Assembly (NCBI GenBank): GCA_963802225.1
Contig: CAWDHZ010000036.1
Coordinates: 79,343 to 143,342, forward strand
Direction: 5' to 3'
Origin: an uncultured delta proteobacterium
Lineage (GTDB): Bacteria; Desulfobacterota; Syntrophia; Syntrophales; UBA2192
DNA length: 64,000 bases
Part shown: piece by piece, positions 5,254 through 63,516 of the stretch
Position numbering within the stretch: the first letter of the stretch is position 1
How the letters are laid out: every line of letters begins with the position of its first letter
Notes under the pieces: model-generated
Seen by the model: the letters and a program-made list of their open reading frames with translations, nothing else
What the model was told of the DNA's origin: nothing
Database searches by the model: none
Program-made: the position numbers and the translations under genes

Positions 5254-5284
5254 GGGTAAAGGGTCCGGGGTCAAGGGTACAGGG
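5254..5284 (+). repeat. G-tract array (5 runs of G3-4 separated by 3-4 nt)
   Basis: GGGTAAAGGGTCCGGGGTCAAGGGTACAGGG, in the divergent region between the activator gene and the VIT-vWA gene. Confidence 0.7.
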
Positions 5285-15446: not shown

Positions 15447-16397
15447 ATGCGGAAGCCAGACTTCTGGAACAACCAAAAGCGCTACTACGATTTCAAGAGC
15501 TTTCTTGTCAATCGATTCGGCTGCCGGGTCCACAAGCTCCAGATCGATGCGGGGTTCACCTGCCCGAACCGCGACGGGAAGGTCGCCGCGGGCGGCTGTG
15601 CCTACTGTGACGGCCGGGGATCGAGTCTGAGGCAGAAAGGGCCGCTACCTTCGGTGGCAGAGCAGATTCGATCCGGAAAGGGCCTCTACCGAAATCTCCG
15701 GGGCGCGGCGAAGTTCATCGCCTACTTCCAGACGTTCACGAACACTTACGGCCCCGTCGAGAAGCTCAAGGCGCTCTACGACGAAGCGATCCTGCAGGAA
15801 GATGTCATCGGGCTTTCCATCGGCACGAGACCCGACTGCATAGACGAGGAGATTCTGAATCTGCTGCAGGATTACGTGAAGAGGTCGCACGTCTGGATCG
15901 AGTATGGGCTGCAATCCATCCATGACCGGACGCTGGGGCGGATGAATCGCGGTCACGATGCGGATGCCTTCATCGAGGCCGTCCGGAAGACGGCAGGCAG
16001 GGGACTCTTCATCTGCACGCACATCATCGTGGGCCTGCCCGGCGAGACACGTGAGGATGTCCTGGAGACAGCCAGGGCCGTGGCAGCTCTCCCCATCGAC
16101 GGCATCAAGATCCACTCCCTGCTCGCGCTGCGCGGGACGGAAGTAGGGCGACTCTACGATGAGGGGGCCATCACGCTTCCGGGGTTGGGCGACTACGTTG
16201 CCACCGTCTGCGATATCCTGGAGGTCCTGCCCCCGACGATGGTGATCCAGAGGCTCACGGCGGAGGGCTACCGGGACATCTACCTCGGCCCGGACTGGGC
16301 GGCGAACAAGCTACGGGTGCTCAACGCCATTGACAGGGAACTCGAAAAAAGGGATACGTGGCAGGGCGCGAAATACAAGGTAACAGGTAGCAGGTAA
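15447..16397 (+). CDS. radical SAM protein, TIGR01212-like (Elp3-related)
   Basis: FTCPNRDGKVAAGGCAYCDG cluster motif. Start taken at MRKPDFWNNQKRYYDF; the longer ORF-track start overlaps mnmG antisense. Confidence 0.8.
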   Translation: MRKPDFWNNQKRYYDFKSFLVNRFGCRVHKLQIDAGFTCPNRDGKVAAGGCAYCDGRGSSLRQKGPLPSVAEQIRSGKGLYRNLRGAAKFIAYFQTFTNTYGPVEKLKALYDEAILQEDVIGLSIGTRPDCIDEEILNLLQDYVKRSHVWIEYGLQSIHDRTLGRMNRGHDADAFIEAVRKTAGRGLFICTHIIVGLPGETREDVLETARAVAALPIDGIKIHSLLALRGTEVGRLYDEGAITLPGLGDYVATVCDILEVLPPTMVIQRLTAEGYRDIYLGPDWAANKLRVLNAIDRELEKRDTWQGAKYKVTGSR

Positions 16398-16441
16398 CAG
16401 GGACTAGCAGGCTACAGGCTACAGGCTACAGGCTACAGGCT
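16381..16441 (+). repeat. heptamer tandem array (TAnCAGG x3, then CTACAGG x4) beginning inside the last codons of the upstream CDS
   Basis: taacagg tagcagg taacagg gactagcagg ctacagg ctacagg ctacagg ctacagg; the stop codon TAA 16395..16397 lies within the array. Confidence 0.9.
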
Positions 16442-18883: not shown

Positions 18884-18999
18884 GAGAGAAGTTAAGAGGG
18901 TGAGAGGGTAAGAAGGTAAGAAGGTTGGATGAGCCGGCGGCCAAATGCAAGGTTCCTGCTTCTCCAGACTTCTCAACTTCAAACCTTCTCACCTTCTGC
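18884..18999. repeat. pair of inverted degenerate octamer arrays (GGTAAGAA-type 18884..18928; CCTTCTCA-type 18955..18999)
   Basis: gagagaag ttaagagg gtgagagg gtaagaag gtaagaag gttgg ... cttctcc agacttctc aacttcaaa ccttctca ccttctgc. Lies in the divergent region between the RdgC-like gene and nadK. Confidence 0.7.
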
Positions 19000-19078: not shown

Positions 19079-19957
19079 ATGGGCATCAAGAGAATCGGTA
19101 TTGTCGGAAACGCGAGCAAGGGCCATGTGGTGGAAAGCATCGCCCGACTCTCCGAATGGGCGAAAGGCAAAGGCCTGGAGGTCCTCCCGGAGAAGGAGGC
19201 GGCCGGTAAGCTCGGAGCCCGGGGCTATCACGGGGATGAGCTCGGCACCCTTGCCGACCTGGTTGTCACCATGGGCGGGGACGGTACACTCCTGCAAGCT
19301 GCACGGCTCATGCGGAAATCGGACGTCCCCATTCTCGGCGTCAACATGGGGACCTTCGGTTATCTGACCGTCATCAACCTCAACGAGATGTTCGACGCAC
19401 TGGAGGCGGTGCTGGCGGGGGATTACCGGACGGAGCAGCGCATGATGCTCGATGTCGCCGTCCACGATGAGGGGGGCGAGAACTTTGAGTGTACCGTGCT
19501 GAACGACGCGGTCATCAACCGAGGCAATTACTCGCGCATGGTGGACCTGGAGACCGTCGTTGACGGCGAGTACCTGACCACCTATCGGGCCGACGGCCTC
19601 ATCATATCGACACCGACGGGTTCCACGGCCTATTCGCTTTCGGCGGGGGGGCCCATTGTCTTTCCCGTGCTGAACACCATTATCCTCAACCCCATCTGTC
19701 CCCACACGCTGACGAACCGGCCGGTCATCCTGCCGGAGACGGCTGTCCTGAAGGTCGTGCTCTGGACGCGTGAGGCGGGGGCCATCCTGAGCTGTGACGG
19801 ACAGGTGACTTACAACCTGAAACCAGGCGATGCCATATCGGTTTGCAAGTCGGACTGTGTGACGAACCTGATCGTTTCCCCCAGGAGGGATTATCTGCAG
19901 ATCCTCCGATCCAAGCTCGGGTGGGGAGGATCCCCCACGGCAGCGAACCGCAAGTGA
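19079..19957 (+). CDS. nadK: NAD+ kinase
   Basis: GGDGTLL motif and NE/TPTGSTAYSLSAGGPI motifs. Start at MGIKRIGIV. Confidence 0.9.
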   Translation: MGIKRIGIVGNASKGHVVESIARLSEWAKGKGLEVLPEKEAAGKLGARGYHGDELGTLADLVVTMGGDGTLLQAARLMRKSDVPILGVNMGTFGYLTVINLNEMFDALEAVLAGDYRTEQRMMLDVAVHDEGGENFECTVLNDAVINRGNYSRMVDLETVVDGEYLTTYRADGLIISTPTGSTAYSLSAGGPIVFPVLNTIILNPICPHTLTNRPVILPETAVLKVVLWTREAGAILSCDGQVTYNLKPGDAISVCKSDCVTNLIVSPRRDYLQILRSKLGWGGSPTAANRK

Positions 19958-20123: not shown

Positions 20124-21815
20124 ATGTTGAAGGAACTGGGCATCACCAACTTTGCCATCATCGACAGGCTCAACCTGGCCTTTCATGACGGCCTGAATGT
20201 CATATCGGGCGAGACAGGGGCAGGCAAGTCGATCCTCATCGGGGCCATCGGGCTTCTGCTCGGGGAGAGGGCCTCGTCGGATCTGATCCGATCCGATGAG
20301 GACGCGGCCATCGTGGAAGCGGCCTTCGACATCGGTCCCCACAAGCTCCTCAAGGCAAAGCTTTACGGGATGGGCTTTCGCCCGGGCCGTGAGCTTGTCG
20401 TGAAACGGGTCGTGTCCCGGTCTGGCAAGAACCGGGTCTACATCGATGGCAACCTTGCTACCGTGGCCATGCTCGGCGAGATCAGCGAAGCGCTCGTCAA
20501 TATCTGCAGCCAGCACGAGCACCAGGCCCTGCTCGACCCGGAGAGTCACATCGACATCCTCGATGAGTTCGGAAACCTGGGCCCGCAGCGAAGCGCCTTC
20601 ACCGCACTCTACGAGGAGCATCAGGGACTGAAGGCGAGGCTGGATGCGTTGGCGGCAAAGAACCGAGACCGTGCCGAGAGGGAGGAATTCCTCCGTTTCC
20701 AGGCCAGCGAGATCGAGAAGGCGGCCCTCAAGCCCGGCGAGGACGTTTCTCTTCAGGAGGAGAAAAAAATCCTCGCAAACGCCGTGAAGCTGACGGAGCT
20801 CGCCCGCGAGTCTTACGAGATCCTCTATGGAAAGGAGGAATCGGTCCTGGGCCAGTTGAGCCGTGTGACCGGCCACATCCGGGAAATCCGCCGCATCGAT
20901 CCGAATTTCAAGGTCTCGGACGAAGAGGTGAAATCCCTTGCCATCCAGCTCGAGGATGCGGCGAGGGTCCTGCAGGATTACCTGAATAAAATCCACGCGG
21001 ACCCGGCGCGGCTCGAGGAGATCGACGACCGGCTCGAGGTCATCGGGAGACTGAAAAAGAAATACGGCGGCTCCATCGAGAGCATACTGAAGACGGGGAC
21101 GACGCTGAAGACCGAACTGGAAGGGCTCTCGAGCGCTGCCGAGGATCTGGAGGGTCTGGGGCGGGAGCTGAAGCTGAAAAAAGCCTCCCTGCAGGAACTT
21201 GGGGAAAAGCTTACCGTCGAGCGCAGGCGTGTGGCCTCATCCATGGAGAAAGCCATCGAAGAGGAGATCCATGACCTGAAGATGGAAAAGGCGCGCTTCG
21301 AGGTCTCATTCAAGGAGCCGCAGCTGGACGACGGGAACATCCCGCGCTTTCACACCAGGGGCGTCGACCATCTGGAGTTTTACCTGTCCACAAACGTGGG
21401 GGAACAGCTGAAGCCTCTCAACCGGATCGCCTCGGGCGGGGAACTCTCGCGGATCGTGCTGGCCATGAAGAAAGTGCTCGCCCGGGCGGGATCCGTCGGG
21501 ACGGTCATCTTCGACGAAGTGGACAGCGGCATCGGTGGAGCCACGGCGGAGATCGTGGGACGAAAACTCCGGGACATTGCGAAAAACCATCAGGTCATCT
21601 GCATCACGCACCTGCCCCAGATTGCCTCCTTCGGCTCTACGCACTACCAGGTCGTGAAAAGTGTAAACGACGGGCGGACGAGAGCGGACGTACGGACCTT
21701 GTCCGAAGAGGAGAGACTCGAGGAGATCACGCGGATGCTGGGCGGTGTGGAAATCACGGACAAGACCCGGGCTGCTGCGAAGGAAATGTTGAAAGCAGCA
21801 AGAAAAAAAGATTAG
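20124..21815 (+). CDS. recN: DNA repair protein RecN
   Basis: Walker A GETGAGKS, long coiled-coil, C-terminal SGGELSR signature and Walker B (VIFDEVDSGIGG). Confidence 0.95.
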   Translation: MLKELGITNFAIIDRLNLAFHDGLNVISGETGAGKSILIGAIGLLLGERASSDLIRSDEDAAIVEAAFDIGPHKLLKAKLYGMGFRPGRELVVKRVVSRSGKNRVYIDGNLATVAMLGEISEALVNICSQHEHQALLDPESHIDILDEFGNLGPQRSAFTALYEEHQGLKARLDALAAKNRDRAEREEFLRFQASEIEKAALKPGEDVSLQEEKKILANAVKLTELARESYEILYGKEESVLGQLSRVTGHIREIRRIDPNFKVSDEEVKSLAIQLEDAARVLQDYLNKIHADPARLEEIDDRLEVIGRLKKKYGGSIESILKTGTTLKTELEGLSSAAEDLEGLGRELKLKKASLQELGEKLTVERRRVASSMEKAIEEEIHDLKMEKARFEVSFKEPQLDDGNIPRFHTRGVDHLEFYLSTNVGEQLKPLNRIASGGELSRIVLAMKKVLARAGSVGTVIFDEVDSGIGGATAEIVGRKLRDIAKNHQVICITHLPQIASFGSTHYQVVKSVNDGRTRADVRTLSEEERLEEITRMLGGVEITDKTRAAAKEMLKAARKKD

Positions 21816-21845
21816 GGTGTGGGGTGTGGCGTGTAGGGTGTGGGC
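21813..21845 (+). repeat. GGGTGT(A/G)-type heptamer array starting at the recN stop codon
   Basis: TAGGGTGTGGGGTGTGGCGTGTAGGGTGTGGGC, with four G3+ tracts. Confidence 0.75.
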
Positions 21846-21882
21846 AAAAAGGATAAAAATGGGCGAAAAGGCTGCTCGACGG

Positions 21883-21926
21883 AATAACGAAACAAACGAA
21901 ATCAACGAACAAACGAAATAGACGAG
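21883..21926 (+). repeat. degenerate AACGAA(A/C)-type tandem array
   Basis: aataacgaa acaaacgaa atcaacgaa caaacgaa atagacgag, upstream of the GNAT gene. Confidence 0.7.
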
Positions 21927-22392: not shown

Positions 22393-22406
22393 CGGCTTTC
22401 GCCGCA

Positions 22407-22440
22407 GTGTTAAGTTTCACGTGTTAAGTGTTACGTGAGG
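22407..22440 (+). repeat. GTGTTAAG-type degenerate array
   Basis: gtgttaag tttcac gtgttaag tgttac gtgagg, just after the GNAT stop. Confidence 0.6.
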
Positions 22441-28867: not shown

Positions 28868-28897
28868 GGGGGATCATATAGAGCTATGATCCCTTTT
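28868..28897 (+). terminator. rho-independent terminator
   Basis: GGGATCATA-tagagc-TATGATCCC followed by TTTTT. Confidence 0.85.
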
Positions 28898-28902
28898 TAT
28901 TT

Positions 28903-29787
28903 ATGGGACTGAAATCGACATTTCGCAGAATCCTGTCAAGCCGCGGGTTCAACCACCCCCTGGTCCCCGCCGGGCTTTTCGCCGTCACCGTGCTGACCAC
29001 CCTCATGGCGGGCGCCCTGCAGGCCGGGGTGAATCCAATCGAAAACCCCTGGGGAATCTGGAAGGGCGTCCCTTTTTCCTTCACGCTGATGCTCATCCTG
29101 GGTTGTCACGAGCTGGGCCACTGGCTGGCATCCAGGAGGCACGGGGTGGACGTGAGCTTTCCCTATTTCATCCCGGGGCCCACCCTCGTGGGGACCTTCG
29201 GGGCCTTCATCGCCATGAAGTCTCCTATCTCGGACCGAAACGCACTCATCGACATCGGGGCGGCGGGGCCGCTGGCAGGTCTTGCCGTGACCATTCCCGT
29301 CCTGTTCGTGGGACTTGCGCTCTCCCAGGTCGTCCCTGCGGTACAGACGGAAGGAGTCGGTATCCACCTCGGCGAATGCGCCCTGTTTTCGGCCGTCAAC
29401 TGGATCGTTCACGGGACCATAGGACCGGATCAGGACGTGATCCTCCACCCCGTGGCCTTTGCGGGCTGGATCGGCCTTCTGGTCACCTCTCTCAATCTCA
29501 TTCCCGTGGGGCAGCTCGACGGCGGCCACATCGTTTATGCGATTTTCGGAGCTCGACAACGGGAGGTGGCCTGGATGGTGGTGGCGATGCTGCTGGTCCT
29601 CGGGATCGTGGGATGGGAGGGATGGCTCATCTGGGGCGGGATCCTGCTCATCCTGGGAGTGAGCCACCCGCCGGTGATCTACGAATGGGGCGAGCTGGAC
29701 AACAGGCGCCTGGCAATCGGGTATTTGGCAATGTTCTGCTTTGCCCTGACCTTTATGCCCATCCCGTTTACGAGCATAAATCTATGA
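28903..29787 (+). CDS. site-2 protease family (M50) membrane metalloprotease
   Basis: HELGH zinc motif within a TM segment, several TM helices, and an LDGG-type motif (GQLDGGH). Confidence 0.8.
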   Translation: MGLKSTFRRILSSRGFNHPLVPAGLFAVTVLTTLMAGALQAGVNPIENPWGIWKGVPFSFTLMLILGCHELGHWLASRRHGVDVSFPYFIPGPTLVGTFGAFIAMKSPISDRNALIDIGAAGPLAGLAVTIPVLFVGLALSQVVPAVQTEGVGIHLGECALFSAVNWIVHGTIGPDQDVILHPVAFAGWIGLLVTSLNLIPVGQLDGGHIVYAIFGARQREVAWMVVAMLLVLGIVGWEGWLIWGGILLILGVSHPPVIYEWGELDNRRLAIGYLAMFCFALTFMPIPFTSINL

Positions 29788-29827
29788 CAGGGTCCAGGGT
29801 AAAGGGGACAGGGTTCAGGGTCAAAGG
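29787..29827 (+). repeat. GGGT-heptad array (5 G-tracts), sense 3' end of the M50 protease gene
   Basis: acagggt ccagggt aaagggg acagggt tcagggt caaagg, starting at the stop codon. Confidence 0.85.
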
Positions 29828-29848: not shown

Positions 29849-29880
29849 CCCTGTACCCTTAACCCTGTACCCTGTACCCC
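29849..29880 (-). repeat. GGGT-heptad array on the minus strand, sense 3' end of radC
   Basis: Plus strand ccctgtacccttaaccctgtaccctgtacccc; the reverse complement is ggggtacagggtacagggttaagggtacaggg. Inverted relative to 29787..29827. Confidence 0.85.
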
Positions 29881-29884
29881 GTCT

Positions 29885-30568
29885 TCAGAGGATTCCCTCC
29901 TCCCGGAAGCTGAAGAAGCGATTCTCGCCCACAATCAGGTGATCGTGCAGCACGATGTCCATGACCCGTGCCGCATCTTGAAGTACCCGCGTCAGGCGAA
30001 TGTCCGCGTCCGAGGGGCGCACGTGCCCCGAGGGGTGATTGTGGACGAGGATGATGGCCGATGCCTTGTGCTTGAGGGCTTTCTCGAGGACCTTGCGGGG
30101 GTAGACGACGGCCTGGTTCACGATCCCCTCCTGGATGGTCTCCACCTGGATGATCCGGTTTCTCGCATTCAGGTAGATCACGGCAAAATGCTCGTCTTTC
30201 AAGCCGCCCATGGAGGCCAGGCAGTAATCGATCAGCTCCTTCGTCGAGGAGATTTGATCCTTCAGCTCAGCACCCTGTCGAAGGTAAAGAGTGCGGACAT
30301 CTCTCACGACCCTGAAAAACAGCGACGAGTGCTCTCCGATGCCCGGAACCTCCCTCAGTGCCTTGAGATCGGCGTCCAGGACGCCTTTCAACGACCCGAA
30401 TCGCTTCAGAAGTTCCTTTGCCCGGGCCTTCACGTCTCCCTGCGGAATGGCGTAGAATAGAAGAAGCTCCAGGATCTCATAATCCTGCAGACCCTCCATT
30501 CCCGCTTTTTCGTACCTCTCTTTCAGGCGCTTCCGATGCCCGAGATGGTGGGGTGCCTCTTTTTCCAT
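29885..30568 (-). CDS. radC: RadC-family JAB/MPN domain protein (UPF0758)
   Basis: HLGHRKRLKERY N-terminus, HhH region, and JAMM motif (HNHPSGHVRPSDAD). Confidence 0.85.
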   Translation of the reverse strand: MEKEAPHHLGHRKRLKERYEKAGMEGLQDYEILELLLFYAIPQGDVKARAKELLKRFGSLKGVLDADLKALREVPGIGEHSSLFFRVVRDVRTLYLRQGAELKDQISSTKELIDYCLASMGGLKDEHFAVIYLNARNRIIQVETIQEGIVNQAVVYPRKVLEKALKHKASAIILVHNHPSGHVRPSDADIRLTRVLQDAARVMDIVLHDHLIVGENRFFSFREEGIL

Positions 30569-31418: not shown

Positions 31419-31451
31419 CCCTGTACCCTGTGCCCTGAACCCTTTGTCCCC
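31419..31451 (-). repeat. GGGT-heptad/G-tract array inside the operon, between the ATPase stop and the permease start
   Basis: Plus strand CCCtgtaCCCtgtgCCCtgaaCCCtttgtCCCC, giving 5 G-tracts in the minus-strand mRNA. Confidence 0.85.
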
Positions 31452-31464
31452 GGCGCCGTGCGCA

Positions 31465-32217
31465 TCAGTGCCGATGGCAGATGATGTGCTGGGATTCGGC
31501 CCCGAAGAGGCGGGTCATGCGGTCCGATTGGCAGAACTCATCGAATCCCCCGTAAAAAAGGAGCTTCCGGTCGATCCACAGGAGGTGATCGGCATATTTC
31601 CCGATGTTGCCGATATCATGTGTGACCAGGATGATGGAGGTGTCCCTGGTTTCCTGAAGGTCCTTCAGGATGCTGAAAAAAGAATCACGCGCCTCGGGGT
31701 CGAGAGCGGCCGTGGGTTCGTCGAGGATCAGCAGCGCCGGTTTGTTCACCATGGCCCGGGCGATGAGGACACGCTGCTGCTGCCCCCCGGAAAGCTCCCC
31801 CACCCGGGTGTCGCCGATCGACGCGATGCCGAGCAGGTCGAGGACCCCATCGATGACCCGCTTGTCCGAGCGGGCAATGGTTCTGGGGAAACGTTTCCCG
31901 GACAGGAGACCGAGGGCGACGATCTCGCGAACCGTCGACGGGAAATACGGGTTGAGCGCGGAAAGGGACTGGGGCAGATACCCCACCTTCGCCCAGAGCC
32001 GAAAGTCGGAAATGTCCTGGCCGAACAGGCGAATCGCTCCGCGCCTGCATGTCGCAAGGCCGAGGATCAGCTTGACGAGAGTTGTCTTTCCCGAGCCGTT
32101 GGGTCCCACGAGGCCCACGAAACTGCCCGCCTCGACGCAGAAGGATACGTCCTCGAGAACGGGGATCGAGTTGTAGGAGAAATGGAGATGATCGACTTCG
32201 ATGATCTTCACGGGCAT
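31465..32217 (-). CDS. znuC: metal ABC transporter ATP-binding protein
   Basis: Walker A GPNGSGKTT, LSGGQQQR signature, Walker B LLILDEP. Confidence 0.9.
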   Translation of the reverse strand: MPVKIIEVDHLHFSYNSIPVLEDVSFCVEAGSFVGLVGPNGSGKTTLVKLILGLATCRRGAIRLFGQDISDFRLWAKVGYLPQSLSALNPYFPSTVREIVALGLLSGKRFPRTIARSDKRVIDGVLDLLGIASIGDTRVGELSGGQQQRVLIARAMVNKPALLILDEPTAALDPEARDSFFSILKDLQETRDTSIILVTHDIGNIGKYADHLLWIDRKLLFYGGFDEFCQSDRMTRLFGAESQHIICHRH

Positions 32218-34504: not shown

Positions 34505-34999
34505 ATGAACTGGAGACTGCCGTTCCTTCTGCTCTTCTGCTGCGCCTTTGCGTTCGCCTGCTCCATCGGCGAAGAACCCAAGAAAGGCCCGCCGGCGGTG
34601 ATCGCCGTGAATGCCGCGGGGCCGGATTTCAAGCTCAAGGACCTCAAGGGGCAGGAGGTGAGTCTCGGCAGCTATCGGGATCGTCCCGTTCTGCTCGTTT
34701 TCGGAACGACGTGGTGTCCCTACTGCCGTGAGGAAATCCCGCGTATCAAGGAAATCTTTGAGAAGGGAAAGGAGAAGAAGCTGGAGGTTCTCAATATCTA
34801 CATCAATGAGCCGGAGGCCAAGGTCTCCGATTTCGCATCAAAATACAAACTCCCTTATCCTGTCCTGCTCGACAAAGACGGGCAGGTGGCCGAGCGCTAC
34901 CAGGTCCGCGGAGTCCCGACGCTCGTCCTGCTGGACAGGCAGGGCAAGATCGTGTGCTATCAGTGCAGGAACCTGGATGCCATGCTCAATGGCCTGTGA
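34505..34999 (+). CDS. TlpA/ResA-like thioredoxin-fold thiol-disulfide oxidoreductase
   Basis: Signal peptide with lipobox-like FAFAC, WCPYC active site, and a GVPT cis-Pro loop. Confidence 0.85.
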   Translation: MNWRLPFLLLFCCAFAFACSIGEEPKKGPPAVIAVNAAGPDFKLKDLKGQEVSLGSYRDRPVLLVFGTTWCPYCREEIPRIKEIFEKGKEKKLEVLNIYINEPEAKVSDFASKYKLPYPVLLDKDGQVAERYQVRGVPTLVLLDRQGKIVCYQCRNLDAMLNGL

Positions 35000-35066
35000 G
35001 GGTTCGAGGCCCGAGGATTGACAAGGGAAGGGCGAACGGCGAACGGATCTCCGACTTTCTGAATCA

Positions 35067-38985: not shown

Positions 38986-39015
38986 GAGGGTAGCGGGTAT
39001 AGGGTCTAGGGTAAG
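38986..39015 (+). repeat. GGGT-heptad array (GGG-tagc-GGG-tata-GGG-tcta-GGG)
   Basis: Canonical G3N4G3N4G3N4G3 pattern, 4 nt after the upstream stop codon. Confidence 0.85.
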
Positions 39016-39039: not shown

Positions 39040-40239
39040 ATGCTGTCGGAGAGACTGCTGGAGAGTTATGCCGAGGTGCTCATCTGGGGTTTGAATACGG
39101 CAAGAAAAAAAAAGATCAGGAAGGGCGAAATCGTAAGGGTCAGTTTCGACTATCCGGCCATTCGGCTGGCGGAGATCCTCCAGAAAAAACTGATCGAGAG
39201 GGGAATCAACCCCATCCTCCGGTCCGGGCTGACACCGGCCATGGAAAAAAATTTCTATGGTCTTTCGGACAAAAAGCAGCTCACCTTTCTTGCCCCCGGC
39301 GACCGGGAGCTCTGCGAGCACATCCACGGCAACATCTATCTCTACGCCCCGGCGTCGCTCACACACCTGCGGGAGGTTGATCCCAAGAGGATCGCCACGG
39401 CCACCGTCGCCCGGAAAGTCCTGAAAGATATTCTGGACCGGCGGGACAGCGAGGGGAGCTTCGGGTGGACCCTGTGCATGATGCCAACCGATGAGCTTGC
39501 CCGGCAGGCGAAGCTGACGACGGCGCAATACGCAAAGCAGGTCGTCAGGGCCTGCTACCTCGATTGCGATGACCCGGTAGGGGAATGGGTGGAAATCTAC
39601 CGGGCAGTAAGCGGAATCAAGAAATGGCTCAATGGGATGAAGGTTGCCTTCTACCACATCGAGGGGGAAAGCGTGGATCTGAAGATCACACCCGGGGAGC
39701 ATCGCAAATGGGTGGGCATATCGGGGCACAATATCCCGAGCTTTGAGATCTTCCTCTCGCCGGACTGGAGGGGAACCGAGGGGCGTTATGTTGCCAATAT
39801 GCCGTCCTTCCGGAGCGGCAATTACGTGGCAGGGGTTGTCCTCGATTTTCGAAAGGGAATCGGGTCTGTCGTTCGGGCCGACGAGGGAGGGGAATTCACC
39901 CGAAAGCAACTCGCCATGGATGAGGGGGCAAACCGGATTGGAGAGTTCTCGCTGACGGACCGGCGATTCTCCCGGATCGACCGCTTCATGGCCAATACCC
40001 TCTACGACGAGAATTTCGGTGGGAAATACGGCAACTGTCACATTGCCTTCGGCTCATCCTACGCGGACACGTACTCGAAAAATCCGGCCGATCTCACGCC
40101 GGCCATGAAAAAAGACCTGGGATTCAACGACTCGGCGCTGCACTGGGACCTTGTCAACACGGAGTCCAAGACCGTTACGGCACAACTGACAACGGGAAAA
40201 AGGGTGATGGTCTATGATGAGGGGGTGTTTAAATACTGA
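39040..40239 (+). CDS. M29 family aminopeptidase (AmpS/PepS-like)
   Basis: 399 aa. C-terminal NTLYDENFGGKYGNCHIAFGSSY and HWDLV motifs resemble thermophilic metalloaminopeptidases. Confidence 0.65.
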   Translation: MLSERLLESYAEVLIWGLNTARKKKIRKGEIVRVSFDYPAIRLAEILQKKLIERGINPILRSGLTPAMEKNFYGLSDKKQLTFLAPGDRELCEHIHGNIYLYAPASLTHLREVDPKRIATATVARKVLKDILDRRDSEGSFGWTLCMMPTDELARQAKLTTAQYAKQVVRACYLDCDDPVGEWVEIYRAVSGIKKWLNGMKVAFYHIEGESVDLKITPGEHRKWVGISGHNIPSFEIFLSPDWRGTEGRYVANMPSFRSGNYVAGVVLDFRKGIGSVVRADEGGEFTRKQLAMDEGANRIGEFSLTDRRFSRIDRFMANTLYDENFGGKYGNCHIAFGSSYADTYSKNPADLTPAMKKDLGFNDSALHWDLVNTESKTVTAQLTTGKRVMVYDEGVFKY

Positions 40240-40287
40240 AAGGGTAAAGGGTATAGGGTAAAGGGTATAGGGTATAGGGTATAGGGT
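40239..40287 (+). repeat. GGGT-heptad array, 7 units (A(A/T)AGGGT)
   Basis: aaagggt aaagggt atagggt aaagggt atagggt atagggt atagggt: seven GGG tracts each spaced by exactly 4 nt, starting at the stop codon. Confidence 0.95.
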
Positions 40288-40346
40288 TTGATACCGTAGA
40301 GGATCCGTTCCGCAACAAGGTGGAATCGTCAGGTGAGGCCAGCCGC

Positions 40347-41556: not shown

Positions 41557-42755
41557 GCGAAAGAGCCCAGGGGGCCAAAGATAAGAAAGCCGCCATCGGT
41601 CCCGATGTGGACCTGTCCAGCTTTACCGCAGAGCCGGTCCGGCACGATTACGTGGAGGATCTGAAGAAGATTCCCGAGACAGACCGCCTGAGAATGATCC
41701 AGTCCGGGATCGACACCGCCGAGAGCGGGAGGTCGGGGACCTACATCCAGATGGACACGGCCGTTGTGCACTCCCACGCCAGACAGGAGGGCCTCGAGGT
41801 AATTCCCATTAAAGAGGCCCTCAAAAAGTATGAATGGGCCAGGGAGTACTACTGGAAGCTCGTCTCCGTCGATGCCGACAAGTACACGGCAGCAGCAGAG
41901 CTTCATCTGCATGACGGATACGTCATCCGGGCCCTGCCCGGCGCGAAGGCGATCTGGCCCGTGCAGGCCTGTCTTTACCTGGACAAGGAAAACATCAGCC
42001 AGTATGTCCACAACCTGATCATCGCCGAGGAAGGCTCGGAGCTCCACGTCATCACCGGCTGTGCGACGTCGCCGCATCTCAAGCGCGGACTTCACGTCGG
42101 TATCTCCGAATTCTTCGTCAAGAAGAACGCCAAGCTGAGCTTTACGATGATTCACCACTGGGCGGAGGAGGTGATGGTGAGGCCCCGCTCCGTGGGCATT
42201 GTCGAGGAGGGGGGACTTTTCCTGAACAACTACATCTGCATGAAACCCGTAAAGAGCCTGCAGATGTACCCCACGACACACCTCGTGGGCAAGGGTGCCG
42301 TCGCCCGCTTCTACAGCATTCTCGTCGGCTCCCCCGGCTCCGAGATGGACGTGGGCGGAAGGATCCTTCTCAAGGCCGAGAACACGAGGGCCGAGATTAT
42401 CGCGCGGGCCATCACCAACGGCGGGACGATCATCAGTCGCGGCGACCTCGTTGGCGAGGTCGCCGGTATCAAGGCCCACCTCGAGTGCAAGGGCATGATT
42501 CTCAACGGCGGCATCATTCACGCCATCCCTGAACTCCAGGGAAAGGTGGACGGCGTCGAGATGTCCCATGAGGCAGCCGTGGGCAAGATCGCCCAGGAAG
42601 AGATCATGTACCTCATGTCTCGCGGGCTATCCGAGGAAGAGGCAACTTCCACGATCGTCCGGGGATTCCTGAGCGTGGATATCCCGGGGCTGCCCCCGAA
42701 GCTCAAGGCTGAGATCGATCGGGCCATCGATCTGAGCTCGAAGGATGTGATGTAA
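41544..42755 (+). CDS. Fe-S cluster assembly SufB/SufD family protein
   Basis: SufBD beta-helix core pattern (ISRG...G....I.AHLEC.G.IL......HAIPEL.....DVEMSHEA.VGKI..EE..YLMSRGL.EEEA...IV.GF). Overlaps the sufC stop. Confidence 0.85.
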   Translation: MRNLSERAQGAKDKKAAIGPDVDLSSFTAEPVRHDYVEDLKKIPETDRLRMIQSGIDTAESGRSGTYIQMDTAVVHSHARQEGLEVIPIKEALKKYEWAREYYWKLVSVDADKYTAAAELHLHDGYVIRALPGAKAIWPVQACLYLDKENISQYVHNLIIAEEGSELHVITGCATSPHLKRGLHVGISEFFVKKNAKLSFTMIHHWAEEVMVRPRSVGIVEEGGLFLNNYICMKPVKSLQMYPTTHLVGKGAVARFYSILVGSPGSEMDVGGRILLKAENTRAEIIARAITNGGTIISRGDLVGEVAGIKAHLECKGMILNGGIIHAIPELQGKVDGVEMSHEAAVGKIAQEEIMYLMSRGLSEEEATSTIVRGFLSVDIPGLPPKLKAEIDRAIDLSSKDVM

Positions 42756-42812
42756 AGGAAGGATCGAGGAACGAGGATCGAAGGTACGAGGACAGAAACA
42801 GCAAGGATCGGG
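42756..42812 (+). repeat. GGA-rich degenerate array in the suf 3' UTR (7 GGA triplets)
   Basis: aaggaaggatcgaggaacgaggatcgaaggtacgaggacag...gcaaggatcgggga, directly after the stop codon. Confidence 0.7.
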
Positions 42813-42834
42813 GAATGCTCTCCGGTCCTTTTTT
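42805..42834 (+). terminator. rho-independent terminator after the suf genes
   Basis: GGAUCGGGGA-augc-UCUCCGGUCC (10 bp including 2 G-U pairs) followed by UUUUUU. Confidence 0.75.
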
Positions 42835-46950: not shown

Positions 46951-46984
46951 AAAAAAAGCTCCCCCTGCGACGGGGGAGCTTTTT
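46951..46984 (-). terminator. rho-independent terminator after cspA
   Basis: AGCTCCCCC-tgcgac-GGGGGAGCT flanked by A7/T4; on the minus strand the stem is followed by TTTTTTT. Confidence 0.85.
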
Positions 46985-47006
46985 CATGCAAAATAAGGTT
47001 CAGGTC

Positions 47007-47207
47007 TTACAGCTTGCGAACGTTTGATGCAGCCGGACCTTTAGGACCGGCGACCACTTCGAAGCTTACGCGTTCACCCTCGGCCAGCGATTTGAAACCA
47101 TCGGCCTGGATAGCGGAATGATGAACGAAAACGTCCTTGCCGCCGTCCTGCTCGATAAAGCCAAATCCCTTTGAATCATTGAACCACTTCACTTTTCCTT
47201 CAGGCAT
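47007..47207 (-). CDS. cspA: cold-shock protein (CspA family)
   Basis: [18 protein letters not shown]...DVFVHHSAI, with RNP1/RNP2 motifs. About 200-nt leader upstream, as usual for csp genes. Confidence 0.95.
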
Positions 47208-47424
47208 CGTAACTACTCCTTTTTTGTATGGGGCTCCTCCAGGGAACCGTATAATAATTTCGCCGAACGATTCGGCGGGCAGACCTTTTTGAAACCAAAA
47301 AAAACGCACATTCCATAATTTCGGTCTGTGCGGTCGACTTCTCTGTAATTTGGCAACTACAAACAGGTACTGCACATCAATTTTGGATTGAATATATGAT
47401 CTTTCAAGCAAATGCAAGCTTTTT

Positions 47425-47978: not shown

Positions 47979-48090
47979 GGTTGATTAAGTATCAGTTGAT
48001 AAGTTGATAGGGGAAATCTACGAGCAATAAATTTACAATGCCCCAATTCCCTAATGGCCTACTCAGCCAATTATCCAATCAACCAATTAC
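47979..48090 (-). repeat. composite element (minus-strand sense): ATTGGTTGA-word array, spacer, TATCAAC-word array
   Basis: Minus strand reads gtaattggttgattggataattgg...gggaattgggg - spacer - cctatcaacttatcaactgatacttaatcaacc. The first array begins inside the last codons of the iPGM-like gene. Confidence 0.75.
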
Positions 48091-49659
48091 TTTCACGGCG
48101 AATCCGTCCCCGTAAACCAGCATCCGGTAAGTTTTTTCGATGCGGTCCCAGTTCTCCTCGCGGTCCATGGACCAGTAGCGGCCGATGACGGAGACGACCC
48201 GGCCCAGATTCAACTCCCCGCACTTGTCCTCGATTTGCTTCACGTAGTTGGCCCCGCTCTCGGGCATCTCTCCGCGGCGCCCGAGCATGGCGTGGATGTA
48301 CATCTCGCCCACACCTTCTTTCTTCGCCATGTCCATAAGGGCGATCAGGTGGTTCATCATGCCGTGAGAGCTGAAAAAGGACACGATCCCCATGAGGTGC
48401 AGAGCCGACCCTCGTTTGCGGGCTTCGGCCATTGCATTGCGAAACGCCTCGTTCGAGAAGAATTCCCCGCTTTCGATGGCGCGGTCGATTTTCAGCCGGT
48501 CGGACCAGACACGCCGCCCTGCGCCGATGTGGAGATGCCCCGCCTCGGAATTGCCGACGGTTCCTGCAGGGAGCCCCACCGATTCGCCGGCGGCGGCCAG
48601 TGATGCGAACGGGTACAAACTCCGCAGTCGGTCCATGGCCGGCGTGTTTGCCCGGGCGATGAGATTCCCCTTCGTCTCGGGGTTGTGGCCCCAGCCGTCG
48701 AGGATGAGGACAACGAGACGCCGGGTGGGCTTCGGCGGATTGCTCTTCAGCAGCGAGCGGCCCTCCATGCATCCCGGTGATTCGATCCCGAAGAGATGGA
48801 GGATGGTGGGTGCCACGTCGGTCAGTTCGCCCTCCCTGCGGATGTCCAAAGGAGCACCGTCGGTCACGATGACAAACGGCACCGGGCTCGAGGTATGTCC
48901 CGTGTCGACGACGCCGTCGGGGTAGAGCCACTGCTCCACCGTGCCGTGGTCGGCCGTGACGAGGACCGGGACCCCGGATTTACGCGCCTCGTCAATGACG
49001 CGGCCCATCTCGAAGTCGACCGCCTCAACGGCACGGATCACGGCGACTTCGTTTTCGATGTGGCCGACGACATCCACGTTGGCGAAGTTTGTCAGGATAA
49101 AATCGTGCCGGCCTTCCCGGATCTCGCGGATCGTGGTGTCGGCCACTTCGCTTACGGACATCTCCGGGGCCTCGTCGAAGAGCTTTACGTCCTTTCGCGT
49201 CGGCACGATGATGCGGTCCTCGCCGGGGAAGGGGTCCTTTCGCTTGCCGCTCAGGAAATAGGTCACGTGAAATGCCTTTTCGGCTTCGGTGATCTTCACC
49301 TGGCGGATGCCGCGGCGGGAGAGGACCTCGCTCAGGGTGTCTTCCAGGTCCTCCTCGGGCGGGAAGGCGACTGCGGCCCGGAGGTCCTTCGAGTACTCGA
49401 TCATGGTGGTGTAGTGAAGGCCGAGCGGCCCTGCGTTGGGAAACTCGTGAAAGTCGTCTTCGACAAGGCTCCGCGAGATCTCCACCTCGCGCTCTCCGCG
49501 GATATTGTAGAAGATCACCACATCCCCCGGCTTGATCCGTCCGACGGGTTTGCCCGACGGGTCGGCGAGCACCAGGGGGTTTAGCGTTTCGTCGTCCTCT
49601 CCGCGGCGGTAGGCATCTCGCACCGCCAGGGACAGGGTATTGGGAAAGAGTGTTTTCAT
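48079..49659 (-). CDS. circularly permuted homolog of cofactor-independent phosphoglycerate mutase (iPGM/GpmI family)
   Basis: All iPGM hallmark motifs are present but in swapped block order: (EAEKAFHVTYF, FANVDVVGH, TADHGTVEQ, DVAPTILHLFG) precede (LILDGWG, GNSEAGHLHIGAGR, LHLMG, GRYWSMDRE). Start at MKTLFPN (49659), 526 aa. The 123-aa N-terminal extension in the ORF track is rejected. Confidence 0.8.
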   Translation of the reverse strand: MKTLFPNTLSLAVRDAYRRGEDDETLNPLVLADPSGKPVGRIKPGDVVIFYNIRGEREVEISRSLVEDDFHEFPNAGPLGLHYTTMIEYSKDLRAAVAFPPEEDLEDTLSEVLSRRGIRQVKITEAEKAFHVTYFLSGKRKDPFPGEDRIIVPTRKDVKLFDEAPEMSVSEVADTTIREIREGRHDFILTNFANVDVVGHIENEVAVIRAVEAVDFEMGRVIDEARKSGVPVLVTADHGTVEQWLYPDGVVDTGHTSSPVPFVIVTDGAPLDIRREGELTDVAPTILHLFGIESPGCMEGRSLLKSNPPKPTRRLVVLILDGWGHNPETKGNLIARANTPAMDRLRSLYPFASLAAAGESVGLPAGTVGNSEAGHLHIGAGRRVWSDRLKIDRAIESGEFFSNEAFRNAMAEARKRGSALHLMGIVSFFSSHGMMNHLIALMDMAKKEGVGEMYIHAMLGRRGEMPESGANYVKQIEDKCGELNLGRVVSVIGRYWSMDREENWDRIEKTYRMLVYGDGFAVKVIG

Positions 49660-49843
49660 GGCATCCTTTCGTTTCCGTACGATAGCGGCAAGCGCCTGGC
49701 GAGGGGTCTCGAAAGGCCCATCTCTTCCGCGGTGCCGGCCCATCATACTGGAAAACAGGTCCGCGGTCAAAGGGACCTTTTCGGTTGCAATGGGGGAGTC
49801 GAAGTGATAAAAATCACTCGAAAAAGCGGGATTTGCGCGCGGT

Positions 49844-50176
49844 ATGAGGAAGTCGGCCTGGGAGAAAACCCAGGAAGAATTATTGAAGGAACGGGCCGAG
49901 GTGCTCGGCAGGGCGGGCGAGGCGCTCTCTTTGGCGCTTTCCGATCTCGAGAAAATAGGACGTTCCATCACCGAGAGGTTCCGTGAGGCCGGTGAGTACC
50001 CGGGACCGGAGATTCTGACGGAGATCAACGGGGAGATCCGGCACTACAACAGTGCCCGCGAATACGCGCAGCTTCGTTACTTTTACCTCATCGTCACCAG
50101 GGAGGCCATGGGGATCCGTCGCCACAAGACGGTCGAAGAAGTCTACAAAATCCCTCCCAAGAAGAAGTATCTATAA
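49844..50176 (+). CDS. hypothetical protein (110 aa)
   Basis: ORF with charged helical composition, ending 6 nt before pcm. No motif recognised. Confidence 0.5.
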   Translation: MRKSAWEKTQEELLKERAEVLGRAGEALSLALSDLEKIGRSITERFREAGEYPGPEILTEINGEIRHYNSAREYAQLRYFYLIVTREAMGIRRHKTVEEVYKIPPKKKYL

Positions 50177-52007: not shown

Positions 52008-52051
52008 ACAGGGACCAGGGTGTAGGGTGTAGGGTGTCGGGTACAGGGGGG
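52008..52051 (+). repeat. GGGT-heptad array (6 G-tracts)
   Basis: acaggga ccagggt gtagggt gtagggt gtcgggt acagggggg, 4 nt after the nlpD stop. Confidence 0.9.
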
Positions 52052-52151
52052 AATTCCCATACGGGGTAAAATTGACGGAAAGCCGAGTAGTGCCTATAAT
52101 AAGTCTGAGTGACAAGTCTGCACTAAATCCAAAGACTGGAAAAACGAACCC

Positions 52152-55532: not shown

Positions 55533-56234
55533 ATGCGGACGGTGGCCATCATCCCGGCAGCCGGATCGGGAAACCGGATGAACCGCGATGTGTCCAAGCA
55601 GTATCTTACGCTTGCGGGCAAGCCCATTCTGGTTTGCACCCTGGAGGTATTTGAGGCCTCCCCGCTCGTCGACGCCCTGCTTGTCGTAGTGCCCTCGCAG
55701 GACATGGAATCGGTGCGCACCGACATTCTGGCCCCCTGGAATCTGAAGAAAGTGGCCGGAATCATTCCCGGGGGGCAAGAGCGCCAGGACTCTGTCCGGG
55801 CGGGGATCGAGGCCCTCGATGCGGACACGGAGCTCGTGATCATTCACGATGCCGTCCGGCCGTTCATTACCGTCGGGCTGATCGAGAGTTGTATCCGGGC
55901 TGCCGCGGCGGAAGGTGCCGTAACCGTCGGGGTGCCGGTGAAGGACACCGTCAAGGAGGTCGGGCCCGACGGCCGGATTTTGCGGACCTGTGACCGGAGC
56001 CTGTTGTGGCTCACCCAGACGCCACAGGTCTTCCGTCGGGACATCATCGAGAGCGCTCATCGTGCCGCCGTCCGTGACGGATTCAGAGGGACCGATGATA
56101 CCGCGCTGGTGGAGCGCCTGGGAATCACCGTCCGGATGATCCGGGGTGACTACGGCAACATCAAGATCACGACCCCGGAAGATCTGGTGATCGCGGAGGC
56201 CCTGCTCGCCGCTTCGCGGCAGGCTAAAGGCTAA
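55533..56234 (+). CDS. ispD: 2-C-methyl-D-erythritol 4-phosphate cytidylyltransferase
   Basis: AIIPAAGSG.RM motif and HDAVRPF. Confidence 0.95.
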   Translation: MRTVAIIPAAGSGNRMNRDVSKQYLTLAGKPILVCTLEVFEASPLVDALLVVVPSQDMESVRTDILAPWNLKKVAGIIPGGQERQDSVRAGIEALDADTELVIIHDAVRPFITVGLIESCIRAAAAEGAVTVGVPVKDTVKEVGPDGRILRTCDRSLLWLTQTPQVFRRDIIESAHRAAVRDGFRGTDDTALVERLGITVRMIRGDYGNIKITTPEDLVIAEALLAASRQAKG

Positions 56235-56255
56235 AGGCTAAAGGCTACTAAGGCT
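56220..56255 (+). repeat. AGGCTAA heptamer microsatellite (about 5 units) containing the ispD stop codon
   Basis: c aggctaa aggctaa aggctaa aggctac taaggct; TAA 56232..56234 is part of unit 2. Confidence 0.9.
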
Positions 56256-56849: not shown

Positions 56850-56884
56850 CCCTCTCCCTTGAGGGGAGAGGGTCAGGGTGAGGG
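56850..56884 (+). repeat. hairpin CCCTCTCCC-ttgag-GGGAGAGGG merging into G-tract run (GGGG..GGG..GGG..GGG)
   Basis: ccctctcccttgaggggagagggtcagggtgaggg, downstream of ispF. Confidence 0.7.
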
Positions 56885-56895
56885 TGATGAAAAAA

Positions 56896-56921
56896 CGGGG
56901 GAGCCGATTGCGGCTCCCCCG
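56896..56921 (-). terminator. rho-independent terminator after the carboxyltransferase gene
   Basis: CGGGGGAGCCG-attg-CGGCTCCCCCG with A6 on the plus-strand 5' side, which reads TTTTTT after the stem on the minus strand. Confidence 0.85.
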
Positions 56922-56951
56922 TTCTGCGTCAACAGCTCTTGAATGTGTCCC

Positions 56952-61626: not shown

Positions 61627-61655
61627 CAGGGTATCGGGTTTCGGGTATCGGGTAA
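61627..61655 (+). repeat. GGGT-heptad array (GGG-tatc-GGG-tttc-GGG-tatc-GGG)
   Basis: Canonical G3N4 x4, 4 nt after the rfbD stop and just before mutL. Confidence 0.9.
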
Positions 61656-63454: not shown

Positions 63455-63458
63455 AAGC

Positions 63459-63516
63459 GTGTAGGTTGGCAGGCGTCCCGCCTGCCAACCTACACGGACA
63501 GGCGAGACGCCTGTCC
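63459..63516 (+). repeat. twin perfect hairpins (17-bp stem/3-nt loop, then 9-bp stem/3-nt loop) sharing the core CAGGCG-N3-CGCCTG
   Basis: GTGTAGGTTGGCAGGCG-tcc-CGCCTGCCAACCTACAC followed directly by GGACAGGCG-aga-CGCCTGTCC. No T-run follows. Confidence 0.9.

Follow-up and report, generated by a model that had tools for sequence, protein, structure and literature searches.

The gene at positions 39040–40239 of the DNA analyzed here encodes an aminopeptidase of the Peptidase_M29 family (Pfam E = 2e-97), and a tandem repeat begins at its stop codon. The DNA (the window) is a 64,000-nucleotide stretch, positions 79,343 to 143,342 of contig CAWDHZ010000036.1, from an uncultured member of the Syntrophales (Desulfobacterota). 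Seven A(A/T)AGGGT units occupy 40239–40287 on its plus strand, the first A being the last base of the TGA stop; Tandem Repeats Finder assigns them a period of 7, 6.7 copies, 92% matches and a score of 80. The next gene downstream is a convergent ferredoxin gene. Arrays of this kind are anchored at the stop codon of the upstream gene and are restricted to one Syntrophales clade, and those built on GGG tracts (G3 arrays) look as if they have been selected for competence to form G-quadruplexes (G4s).

Heptad arrays in the window

Scanned for GGGT at an exact 7-nt period, with at least three units and one gap tolerated, the window yields eight arrays; 200 dinucleotide-preserving shuffles averaged 0.025 and never exceeded 1. 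The heptad arrays of the window are a genuine family and not the product of chance. The first-pass annotation, which had listed ten loci and claimed that most satisfy the motif (G3+ N1-7)x4, described the sequence correctly at all ten, and nine carry the motif; at 21813 one tract reads GGCG. Nine of the ten also stand as family members. The tenth, at 56863–56884 (+), is a hairpin with a G-run and was rejected: its period is 6–7, its loops are 3 nt long, it lies 68 nt past the ispF stop, and a hairpin (CCCTCTCCC/GGGAGAGGG) conserved in relatives takes its 3′ arm from the first tracts. The conserved hairpin in this region (56850–56925) reads CCCTCTCCC-ttga-GGGGAGAGGG and is followed by GGGTCAGGGTGAGGG and then by the strong terminator hairpin (GGGGGAGCCG...CGGCTCCCCC; T-run on the minus strand) of the convergent carboxyltransferase gene.

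In every array of the window that follows a gene, the G-rich strand is the sense strand of that gene, as had been proposed, and the start is close to the stop codon, with gaps of −3, −1, +4, +13, +3, −1, +3 and +3 nt in order of position. The first of these is a (T[A/G]GGGTG)-type array at 21813–21845 (+), with the recN TAG stop inside its first unit. Two five-tract arrays, at 29787–29827 (+) and 29849–29880 (−), face each other between convergent genes; the former begins on the final A of the TGA that ends an M50 peptidase gene and the latter 4 nt from the TGA stop of radC (29885–30568, −). Another five-tract array, at 31419–31451 (−), begins 13 nt from the stop of an ABC ATPase gene (31465–32217, −) inside a znuC–znuB-type operon. 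Because its last tract lies 4 nt ahead of the ATG of the ABC-3 permease gene, that tract probably serves as a Shine–Dalgarno sequence. Four tracts (GGGTAGC GGGTATA GGGTCTA GGGT) at 38986–39015 (+) begin 3 nt from a TGA stop, in the 57-nt spacer that leads from a PK_C-domain gene to the aminopeptidase gene. A six-tract array at 52008–52051 (+) begins 3 nt from the TGA stop of an M23 peptidase gene, with a promoter-like site downstream at 52072–52100, and (GGGTATC/GGGTTTC)x4 at 61627–61655 (+) begins 3 nt from the rmlD TGA stop in the short rmlD–mutL spacer. The five-tract array at 5254–5284 (+) is the sole member without an upstream gene to follow. It had been assigned to the 5′ side of the vWA gene, and its placement is better given as between divergent sigma-54 activator and VIT/vWA genes.

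Heptad arrays without G3 tracts, all outside the earlier list, lie at 16378, 16408, 35000, 42760 and 56221. At 16378–16441 (+), 3.4 copies of AGGTAAC are followed, 10 nt on, by five of CAGGCTA. The pair is only an apparent exception among the arrays, since the open reading frame (ORF) ending at 16397 is a real radical-SAM gene by Pfam and ends inside the first array (16378–16401), which encodes its final codons (...KVTGSR*) and its TAA stop. Likewise, four AGGCTAA units at 56221–56247 (+), in the ispD–ispF spacer, supply the last 14 nt of ispD (...RQAKG*) with its TAA stop. Slippage in copy number at these two arrays would therefore alter C-termini. Degenerate CGAGGNN-type heptads at 35000–35021 (+) lie immediately 3′ of the TGA stop of the gene at 34505–34999. 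A SufBD gene has its stop at 42755 and is followed by an intrinsic terminator at 42803–42830; three CGAGGAN units at 42760–42781 (+) lie in the intervening DNA and thus within a 3′ untranslated region (UTR).

Strand, position and distribution in relatives

Relatives were gathered by way of the aminopeptidase, as syntenic loci (L001 and so on) in metagenome-assembled genomes (MAGs) of uncultured Syntrophaceae/Syntrophales, with aminopeptidase identities of 98, 96, 94, 93, 91, 89 and 82–84%, and then of 65% or less. Strict GGGT arrays are present in all of the 14 loci at ≥82% identity except L007. The same scan of 66 loci at ≤65% identity found essentially none (two 3-unit matches in 1.04 Mb), and several of these array-poor loci match the clade in GC content; no arrays were found in L206, a complete 4.77-Mb genome at 79% identity. 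Neither an exact look-up of the aminopeptidase protein nor a megablast search against plasmids gave a match, so that the window, chromosomal and MAG-like, is absent in verbatim form from both collections. A metagenome scan for AGGGTNN x4 proved unusable as an independent sample, being swamped by telomere-like TTTAGGG/TTCAGGG repeats; it left a few prokaryotic-looking matches, which after ORFs of at least 300 codons had the G strand in five cases and the C strand in one.

A census that presupposed no unit scored self-similarity at each lag over 341 kb of clade sequence. At the strict setting, lag 7 gave 17 arrays and lags 5, 6 and 8–12 gave 0–1; the density of lag-7 arrays was 17-fold lower in the distant loci. 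At the permissive setting there were 70 arrays at lag 7 and 1, 7, 14, 3 and 0 at lags 5, 6, 8, 9 and 10. All but three of the 70 are intergenic, in sequence that is 86% coding. The G3 type, whose dominant form is (AYAGGGT)4–7, accounts for 38 of them. The remaining arrays use units such as AAAGGCT, CAGGCTA, CGAGGAN, GAAAGAC, AGCGTGT and CAAACAG, and have a size mode of 3–4 units in a distribution shaped by the detection threshold.

Forty-six arrays can be assigned to a single gene, with a stop codon no more than 30 nt upstream, and in 45 of them the G-rich strand coincides with that gene's sense strand. Ten of the 45 sit behind minus-strand genes and are themselves on the minus strand, so that orientation tracks transcription rather than replication, and an explanation by replication strand was rejected. 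Background purine or G loading of 3′ flanks was rejected as well, because array-free flanks are unbiased (G>C in 75, G<C in 66). Position is also constrained. The array starts within −20 to +12 nt of the stop codon in 38 of the 70 cases, whereas random placement in the same spacers gives 17.9 ± 3.0 such starts (maximum 29 in 1000 trials); the typical gap is −3 to +5 nt. Arrays occupy 26% of codirectional spacers, 32% of convergent ones and 12% of divergent ones.

Turnover at orthologous sites and quadruplex competence

Conservation at orthologous positions, which had been proposed as a check on the family, holds for the gene ends but not for the units or their copy number. At the 3′ end of the aminopeptidase gene, arrays orthologous to the exemplar range from 0 to about 12 units of at least five types: AWAGGGT is present seven times in the window, five times in L026, four times in L011 and twice in L004 and L009, and L006 has about 12 units of AAAGGGC. 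At the site upstream of the aminopeptidase gene, 4–5 G-tracts with differing loops are kept in 8 of 11 syntenic relatives, and the other three have A-rich heptads that merge with the Shine–Dalgarno sequence. The transition is gradual in L045 and L002 (AAAGGTT AAAGGGT AAAGGAG AAAGGAG..ATG). Across most of the clade, heptad arrays with differing units are found at the ends of the M50 peptidase gene, radC, znuC, the gene at 34505–34999 and sufBD; the radC array is present in 11 of 12 relatives, the orthologues of 31419 retain 5–6 tracts in L001, L026, L004, L005 and L008, and relatives bear clear CGAGGNN arrays at the site of 35000. The ends of the M23 peptidase gene, ispD and rmlD have arrays with unit turnover in six further loci, including five tracts at the orthologues of 52008 in L202 and L204. 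These genomes span 57–67% GC. An origin from mobile elements, such as miniature inverted-repeat transposable elements, is unsupported, the arrays evolving in place at conserved orthologous sites.

The mutL–miaA spacer provides a different kind of substitution. In the window two perfect hairpins (63458–63516) come straight after the mutL stop, one with an 18-bp stem (−36.8 kcal/mol) and one with a 9-bp stem (−17 kcal/mol). Four relatives have five-tract G3 arrays at this position, and L205 has an array together with the second hairpin. A hairpin can thus stand in for an array at the same site.

Folding was predicted with ViennaRNA using quadruplex energies, for the arrays alone and with 30-nt flanks. 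Isolated arrays are predicted to form a three-tetrad G4 of about −8.4 kcal/mol; for the exemplar the minimum free energy is −8.9 kcal/mol, and its G4 is retained with flanks. The same is true of eight of the ten loci first listed, the exceptions being 56863 and 29787, which pairs with the array that faces it. When G4s are disallowed, single arrays reach a hairpin energy of only 0 to −6 kcal/mol. The pair 29787/29849, whose arrays face each other, folds together as a hairpin of −51.7 kcal/mol (z = −5.0), an automatic result of having the same unit on opposite strands.

Base-by-base comparison of the arrays, which had been detected without reference to any unit, shows where variation is accepted. 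In G3 arrays the consensus of the array is matched in 98.6% of cases in the G columns and in 77.5% in the inner two loop columns (Fisher p = 3e-25), with the flanking A at 93% and the flanking T at 89%; in non-G3 arrays, agreement by base spans just 83–92%. The loops are 4 nt long and poor in G, with the consensus T-A-Y-A. Tract number is also restricted. Among chains of G3 tracts at an exact 7-nt period in intergenic DNA of the clade, those with two tracts number 59 (53 expected) and those with three number 8 (2.3 expected), whereas there are 11 with four (0.09 expected), 18 with five (0.01 expected), 4 with six and 1 with seven. The peak is thus at 4–5 tracts, and 2–3 tracts are near the chance level. 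Since this mode is combined with uniform G columns and a predicted three-tetrad G4, the G3-type arrays look selected for G4 competence.

Several other features of these spacers deserve mention. Beyond the exemplar, a segment of about 60 nt (40288–40346) is common to L004, L009 and L011 (91–83% identity) but not to the closest relatives, L001, L002 and L003, which have a different common segment after the aminopeptidase array; such intergenic "alleles", discordant with the protein tree, suggest recombination. About 35 nt past the recN array and before a GNAT acetyltransferase gene lies an A-rich tandem repeat of period 9/17 (21879–21925; AACGAAATA / ACGAAACAAACGAAATC). An imperfect 7/14-nt repeat (22406–22437; AGTGTTA / GTGTTAAGTGTCAC) containing CACGTG follows 13 nt past the stop of the GNAT gene; it is a doubtful member of the heptad family and perhaps an operator-like site. 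A separate period-8 family is represented in a divergent intergenic region at 18887–18997 by (GAGAAGKT)n on the plus strand and, about 40 nt on, the complementary (ACTTCTCA)n, the two together folding as a hairpin some 120 nt long (−62 kcal/mol, z = −5.8). The paired architecture recurs in L045 (5960/6028), L010 (243/315) and L011 (8036/8109 and 10441/10522), and single GAGAAGKT-type arrays occur in L009 and L006. Degenerate period-8 ATTGGNNN repeats are found at 48036–48087 (−), after the stop of the gene at 48079–50028 (−), and in L002 at 19711–19735; L201–L203, L009, L011 and L006 have four-tract G3 heptad arrays at the end of the same gene. The sole Rfam match in the window is a full-length cspA thermoregulator at 46951–47280 (−), with 84 bits against a gathering threshold of 78, upstream of a cold-shock-domain gene region. 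In L201, L202 and L204, rmlD, truA, pgk, ispD, valS and other genes are fragmented in a manner typical of long-read indel errors, and the irregular 6-nt spacings in their arrays may be assembly artifacts.

Known heptamer repeats and candidate roles

G-rich heptamer repeats at gene ends have been reported between 2007 and 2015 from a few scattered lineages. Rehm et al. (2015) reported on the repeats GGGAATC of Xanthomonas and GGGGA(C/T)T of Nostoc PCC 7120, which are heptameric and intergenic, favor spacers between aligned ORFs and are rare between divergent ones, form G4s in vitro as judged by circular dichroism, are present in transcripts, and, in Xanthomonas, differ between Xcc and Xac in both the length and the sequence found at shared sites (PMC4692102). 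The suggestion that no annotated feature explains the arrays is thus correct for annotation, Rfam having no family at the arrays of the window, but not for the literature, where the class is known in Xanthomonas and Nostoc. The Syntrophales arrays share with the repeats of Rehm et al. the head-to-tail 7-nt units with one G3–4 tract each, the strong intergenic bias, a mode of about four units (the minimum for an intramolecular G4), the preference for aligned over divergent spacers, the occupation of the same intergenic sites in relatives with varying length and sequence, and the absence of any tie to gene function. The window array 61627 (GGGTATC) even fits the Xanthomonas unit GGGNATC. They differ in their main unit (AYAGGGT), in their host, a clade of uncultured anaerobic Syntrophales, in their closer approach to the stop codon (−3 to +5 nt), and in the replacement of G-rich by non-G heptads at orthologous sites. 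G4 formation and transcription were demonstrated for Xanthomonas and Nostoc, in vitro and in transcripts respectively; in the Syntrophales the G4 is a prediction. The literature yielded no functional follow-up of the Xanthomonas and Nostoc repeats. It is well supported that the Syntrophales arrays are a new lineage's version of known G4-capable heptameric simple sequence repeats (SSRs), and equally that the G3 arrays sit within a broader habit of 7-nt tandem repeats at gene 3′ ends.

Heptamers are prominent in other lineages as well; the STRR repeats of cyanobacteria, reportedly described by Mazel in 1990, are of this length. According to Mrazek et al. (2007), as reported in PMC4679880 and PMC4692102, heptanucleotides are the commonest class of long SSRs (LSSRs) in scattered genomes, and polymerase slippage was proposed as their source. 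Period 7 exceeds all unit lengths from 5 to 12 in the Syntrophales too, with a sporadic, lineage-specific, intergenic distribution in GC-rich genomes; stop-codon anchoring, a sense-strand rule and differential constraint on G columns are not known to have been noted in the LSSR and STRR surveys. The TAACTGA direct repeats of marine Beggiatoaceae, cyanobacteria and Bacteroidetes (MacGregor 2015; PMC4679880) are likewise intergenic heptamers (2–6 copies) whose orientation follows genes, whose neighbors show no functional pattern, and for which a post-transcriptional role is suspected. These have one fixed unit without a G-tract and overlap the ribosome-binding site, a few nt ahead of the start codon, whereas the Syntrophales units differ and are anchored to the upstream stop. 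Geobacter metallireducens, a deltaproteobacterium, has GGACCGG elements of four tandem G-rich heptanucleotides in many copies per genome (Aklujkar et al. 2009; PMC2700814). That unit contains C and no G3 tract, and the elements occur within genes too and form a 49-member BLAST family that includes flanks, behaving as dispersed elements.

The functional parallel may be sought in a different class, the repetitive extragenic palindromes (REPs) and bacterial interspersed mosaic elements (BIMEs) of enterobacteria, of which Newbury in 1987 and Liang in 2015 are said to have given accounts. These structures lie just 3′ of stop codons or in intercistronic spacers and stabilize the upstream cistron, and REPs within about 15 nt of the stop interfere with termination. 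REPs are palindromic hairpins spread by RAYT transposases; the heptad arrays are non-palindromic tandem repeats, whose units do not each form a hairpin of their own, the facing pair 29787/29849 being the only one to form a hairpin at all.

On balance we lean, by a modest degree of conviction, toward a composite account of the Syntrophales arrays. Replication slippage would create and reshape them. They would be transcribed as the first bases of the 3′ UTR or of the intercistronic spacer, as is suggested by their positions inside operons and by that of 42760 between a stop codon and an intrinsic terminator. Selection would then retain enough G-tracts, at least four with short G-free loops, for a three-tetrad quadruplex, whether it forms in RNA or in the non-template DNA strand once displaced. 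The folded array would act like a hairpin, blocking 3′→5′ exonucleases and serving as a local insulator at the 3′ end of the cistron. Arrays of non-G heptads would be decayed or re-homogenized derivatives, and their presence at the same sites suggests a function that is dispensable at any single site. Most of our doubt about the account as a whole concerns the step in which the array is equivalent to a hairpin that blocks the 3′ end.

Several observations weigh against this account. As many as 32 of the 70 arrays are not of the G3 type and yet obey the same rules of position and strand. At the 3′ end of the aminopeptidase gene, L001, L002, L003 and L045 have 2–5 units of AAAGGCT and L007 has eight of GAAAGAC, all without a G3 tract, and L005 and L008 lack an array; at the SufBD 3′ site the units are CGAGGNN or CAGGCNN, with NCAGGGT in some orthologues. 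With such units at the aminopeptidase and SufBD sites, a G4 cannot be essential to any one site. Conservation of 78% at both the A preceding GGG and the T following it is beyond what a G4 alone explains. Bacteria are reported to be depleted of RNA G4s, whose insertion does harm (Guo and Bartel 2016, as represented in PMC8191793). In addition, the counts pool orthologous arrays of related genomes and represent about 15 independent gene ends, all of them sense, and the gene calls are crude, at least one being wrong.

The alternative that we regard as unlikely, though to be taken seriously, is that the arrays are neutral or selfish SSRs, by-products of slippage that persist without function where they are tolerated. 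Heptamers would be the favored slippage unit, as 7-nt loops escape mismatch repair; they would be tolerated away from promoters and ribosome-binding sites, and C-rich mRNA would be avoided because it would load Rho. Such a view accommodates the rapid shifts of copy number and unit among close relatives (98–91% identity), the many unrelated units that follow the same rules, the outright loss of the array in L005 and L008 and the scarcity of arrays between divergent genes, and it agrees with the proposal that polymerase slippage underlies the dominance of heptamers (Mrazek 2007, as reported in PMC4679880 and PMC4692102) and with the use of the Xanthomonas GGGAATC repeats as hypervariable variable-number tandem repeat markers. 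Neutral slippage should, however, produce a monotonic fall in tract number, and not a mode at 4–5 with 2–3 tracts at chance, as Rehm et al. argued for their repeats. It should also let all columns decay equally, whereas the G columns are about 20-fold less variable than the loops, and it does not account for the retention of arrays at the same gene ends in genomes of 57–67% GC; the avoidance of C-rich mRNA is explained solely through the assumption of Rho loading. A periodic binding array, in which a multimeric RNA-binding protein, or the anti-Shine–Dalgarno tail of the ribosome, would recognize (A/G)GG cores recurring with a 7-nt period, is improbable. HutP, which binds UAG-N4 repeats, is a precedent for reading at a 7-nt period. 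Ribosomes or 30S subunits held in this way after termination could couple translation of the next cistron, and the conserved A and T flanks, the AGG, GAGG or GGG core of nearly all unit types, the gradation into a true Shine–Dalgarno sequence in L045 and L002, the last tracts 4–11 nt before the ATG in the znuC–znuB and mutL–miaA spacers, and the roughly 10 of 70 arrays that abut the next start codon are all in keeping with it. Yet arrays are at least as frequent after convergent terminal genes (32% of spacers), where there is no downstream cistron; in long spacers they hug the upstream stop rather than the downstream start; the core is missing from GAAAGAC, AGCGTGT, CAAACAG and similar units; and no candidate protein was identified.

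Because the sense rule for the G-rich strand is equally an antisense rule for the C-rich strand, exactly at the gene boundary, the complement (ACCCTRT)n might act instead as a G-free loading site for Rho and end antisense transcripts that enter the 3′ end of a gene. Rho prefers C-rich, G-poor RNA and suppresses antisense transcription. In convergent pairs each transcript would meet the C-rich array of its partner before entering the partner gene, and most non-G3 units, too, are richer in C than in G on the antisense strand (for the preference of Rho and its suppression of antisense transcription, see also PMC11551753). With arrays of 25–50 nt, below the length of a typical Rho utilization site, with operon-internal arrays that would seldom meet antisense transcripts, and with 7-nt phasing, a 4–5-tract mode and G-column constraint that it explains no better than does a G4, we judge this insulator very improbable. 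Terminators or three-frame stop pads, both raised in the first-pass annotation, are scarcely credible. The location at gene ends suits either, and no hairpin terminator follows the GGGT arrays, which would be consistent with their being terminators themselves. A terminator scan of the window listed none of the GGGT arrays, its canonical terminators being at 28868, 42803 and 59933, and no array in this class is followed by a hairpin with a T-run. A terminator role is unlikely because several arrays lie within operons, filling spacers of 40–57 nt (znuC–znuB, ispD–ispF, rmlD–mutL, and PK_C gene–aminopeptidase gene), and the array at 42760 precedes the canonical terminator at 42803. Stop codons in all three frames are indeed provided by units that hold TAA or TAG, as in the exemplar and a few others, and three-frame coverage is found in 4 of 46 array-bearing flanks against 0 of 154 array-free ones; for the family overall the claim fails, since 27 of the 46 add no stop within 30 nt and the common units ACAGGGT, TCAGGGT and GGGTATC hold none. 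The stop pad for ribosome rescue is thereby largely refuted.

The composite account has a bolder form, which we put forward tentatively and consider doubtful, in which RNA G4s are a selected, genome-wide cap at the cistron 3′ ends of this clade. With the G4 so near the stop codon, termination would oblige the ribosome to unfold it; the cap would shield the upstream cistron from 3′ exonucleases and expose the next ribosome-binding site in a manner dependent on upstream translation.

The Syntrophales are a third, unrelated and uncultured lineage with the same architecture, governed by unusually clean rules. They add comparative evidence of a new kind: gene ends persist while units turn over, G-tracts are constrained while loops drift, and a hairpin replaces an array. 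These three lines lend weight both to an independent (convergent) origin and to a structural role under selection. For annotation, it is of practical use that some arrays supply the last codons and stop of real genes, and the arrays are likely to be hot spots for MAG assembly and indel errors. If the bolder, cap form of the account is true, these bacteria would make natural, dense use of RNA G4s on the sense strand, contrary to the view that bacteria purge them, and a function would be provided for the heptamer repeats of Xanthomonas, Nostoc and other lineages.

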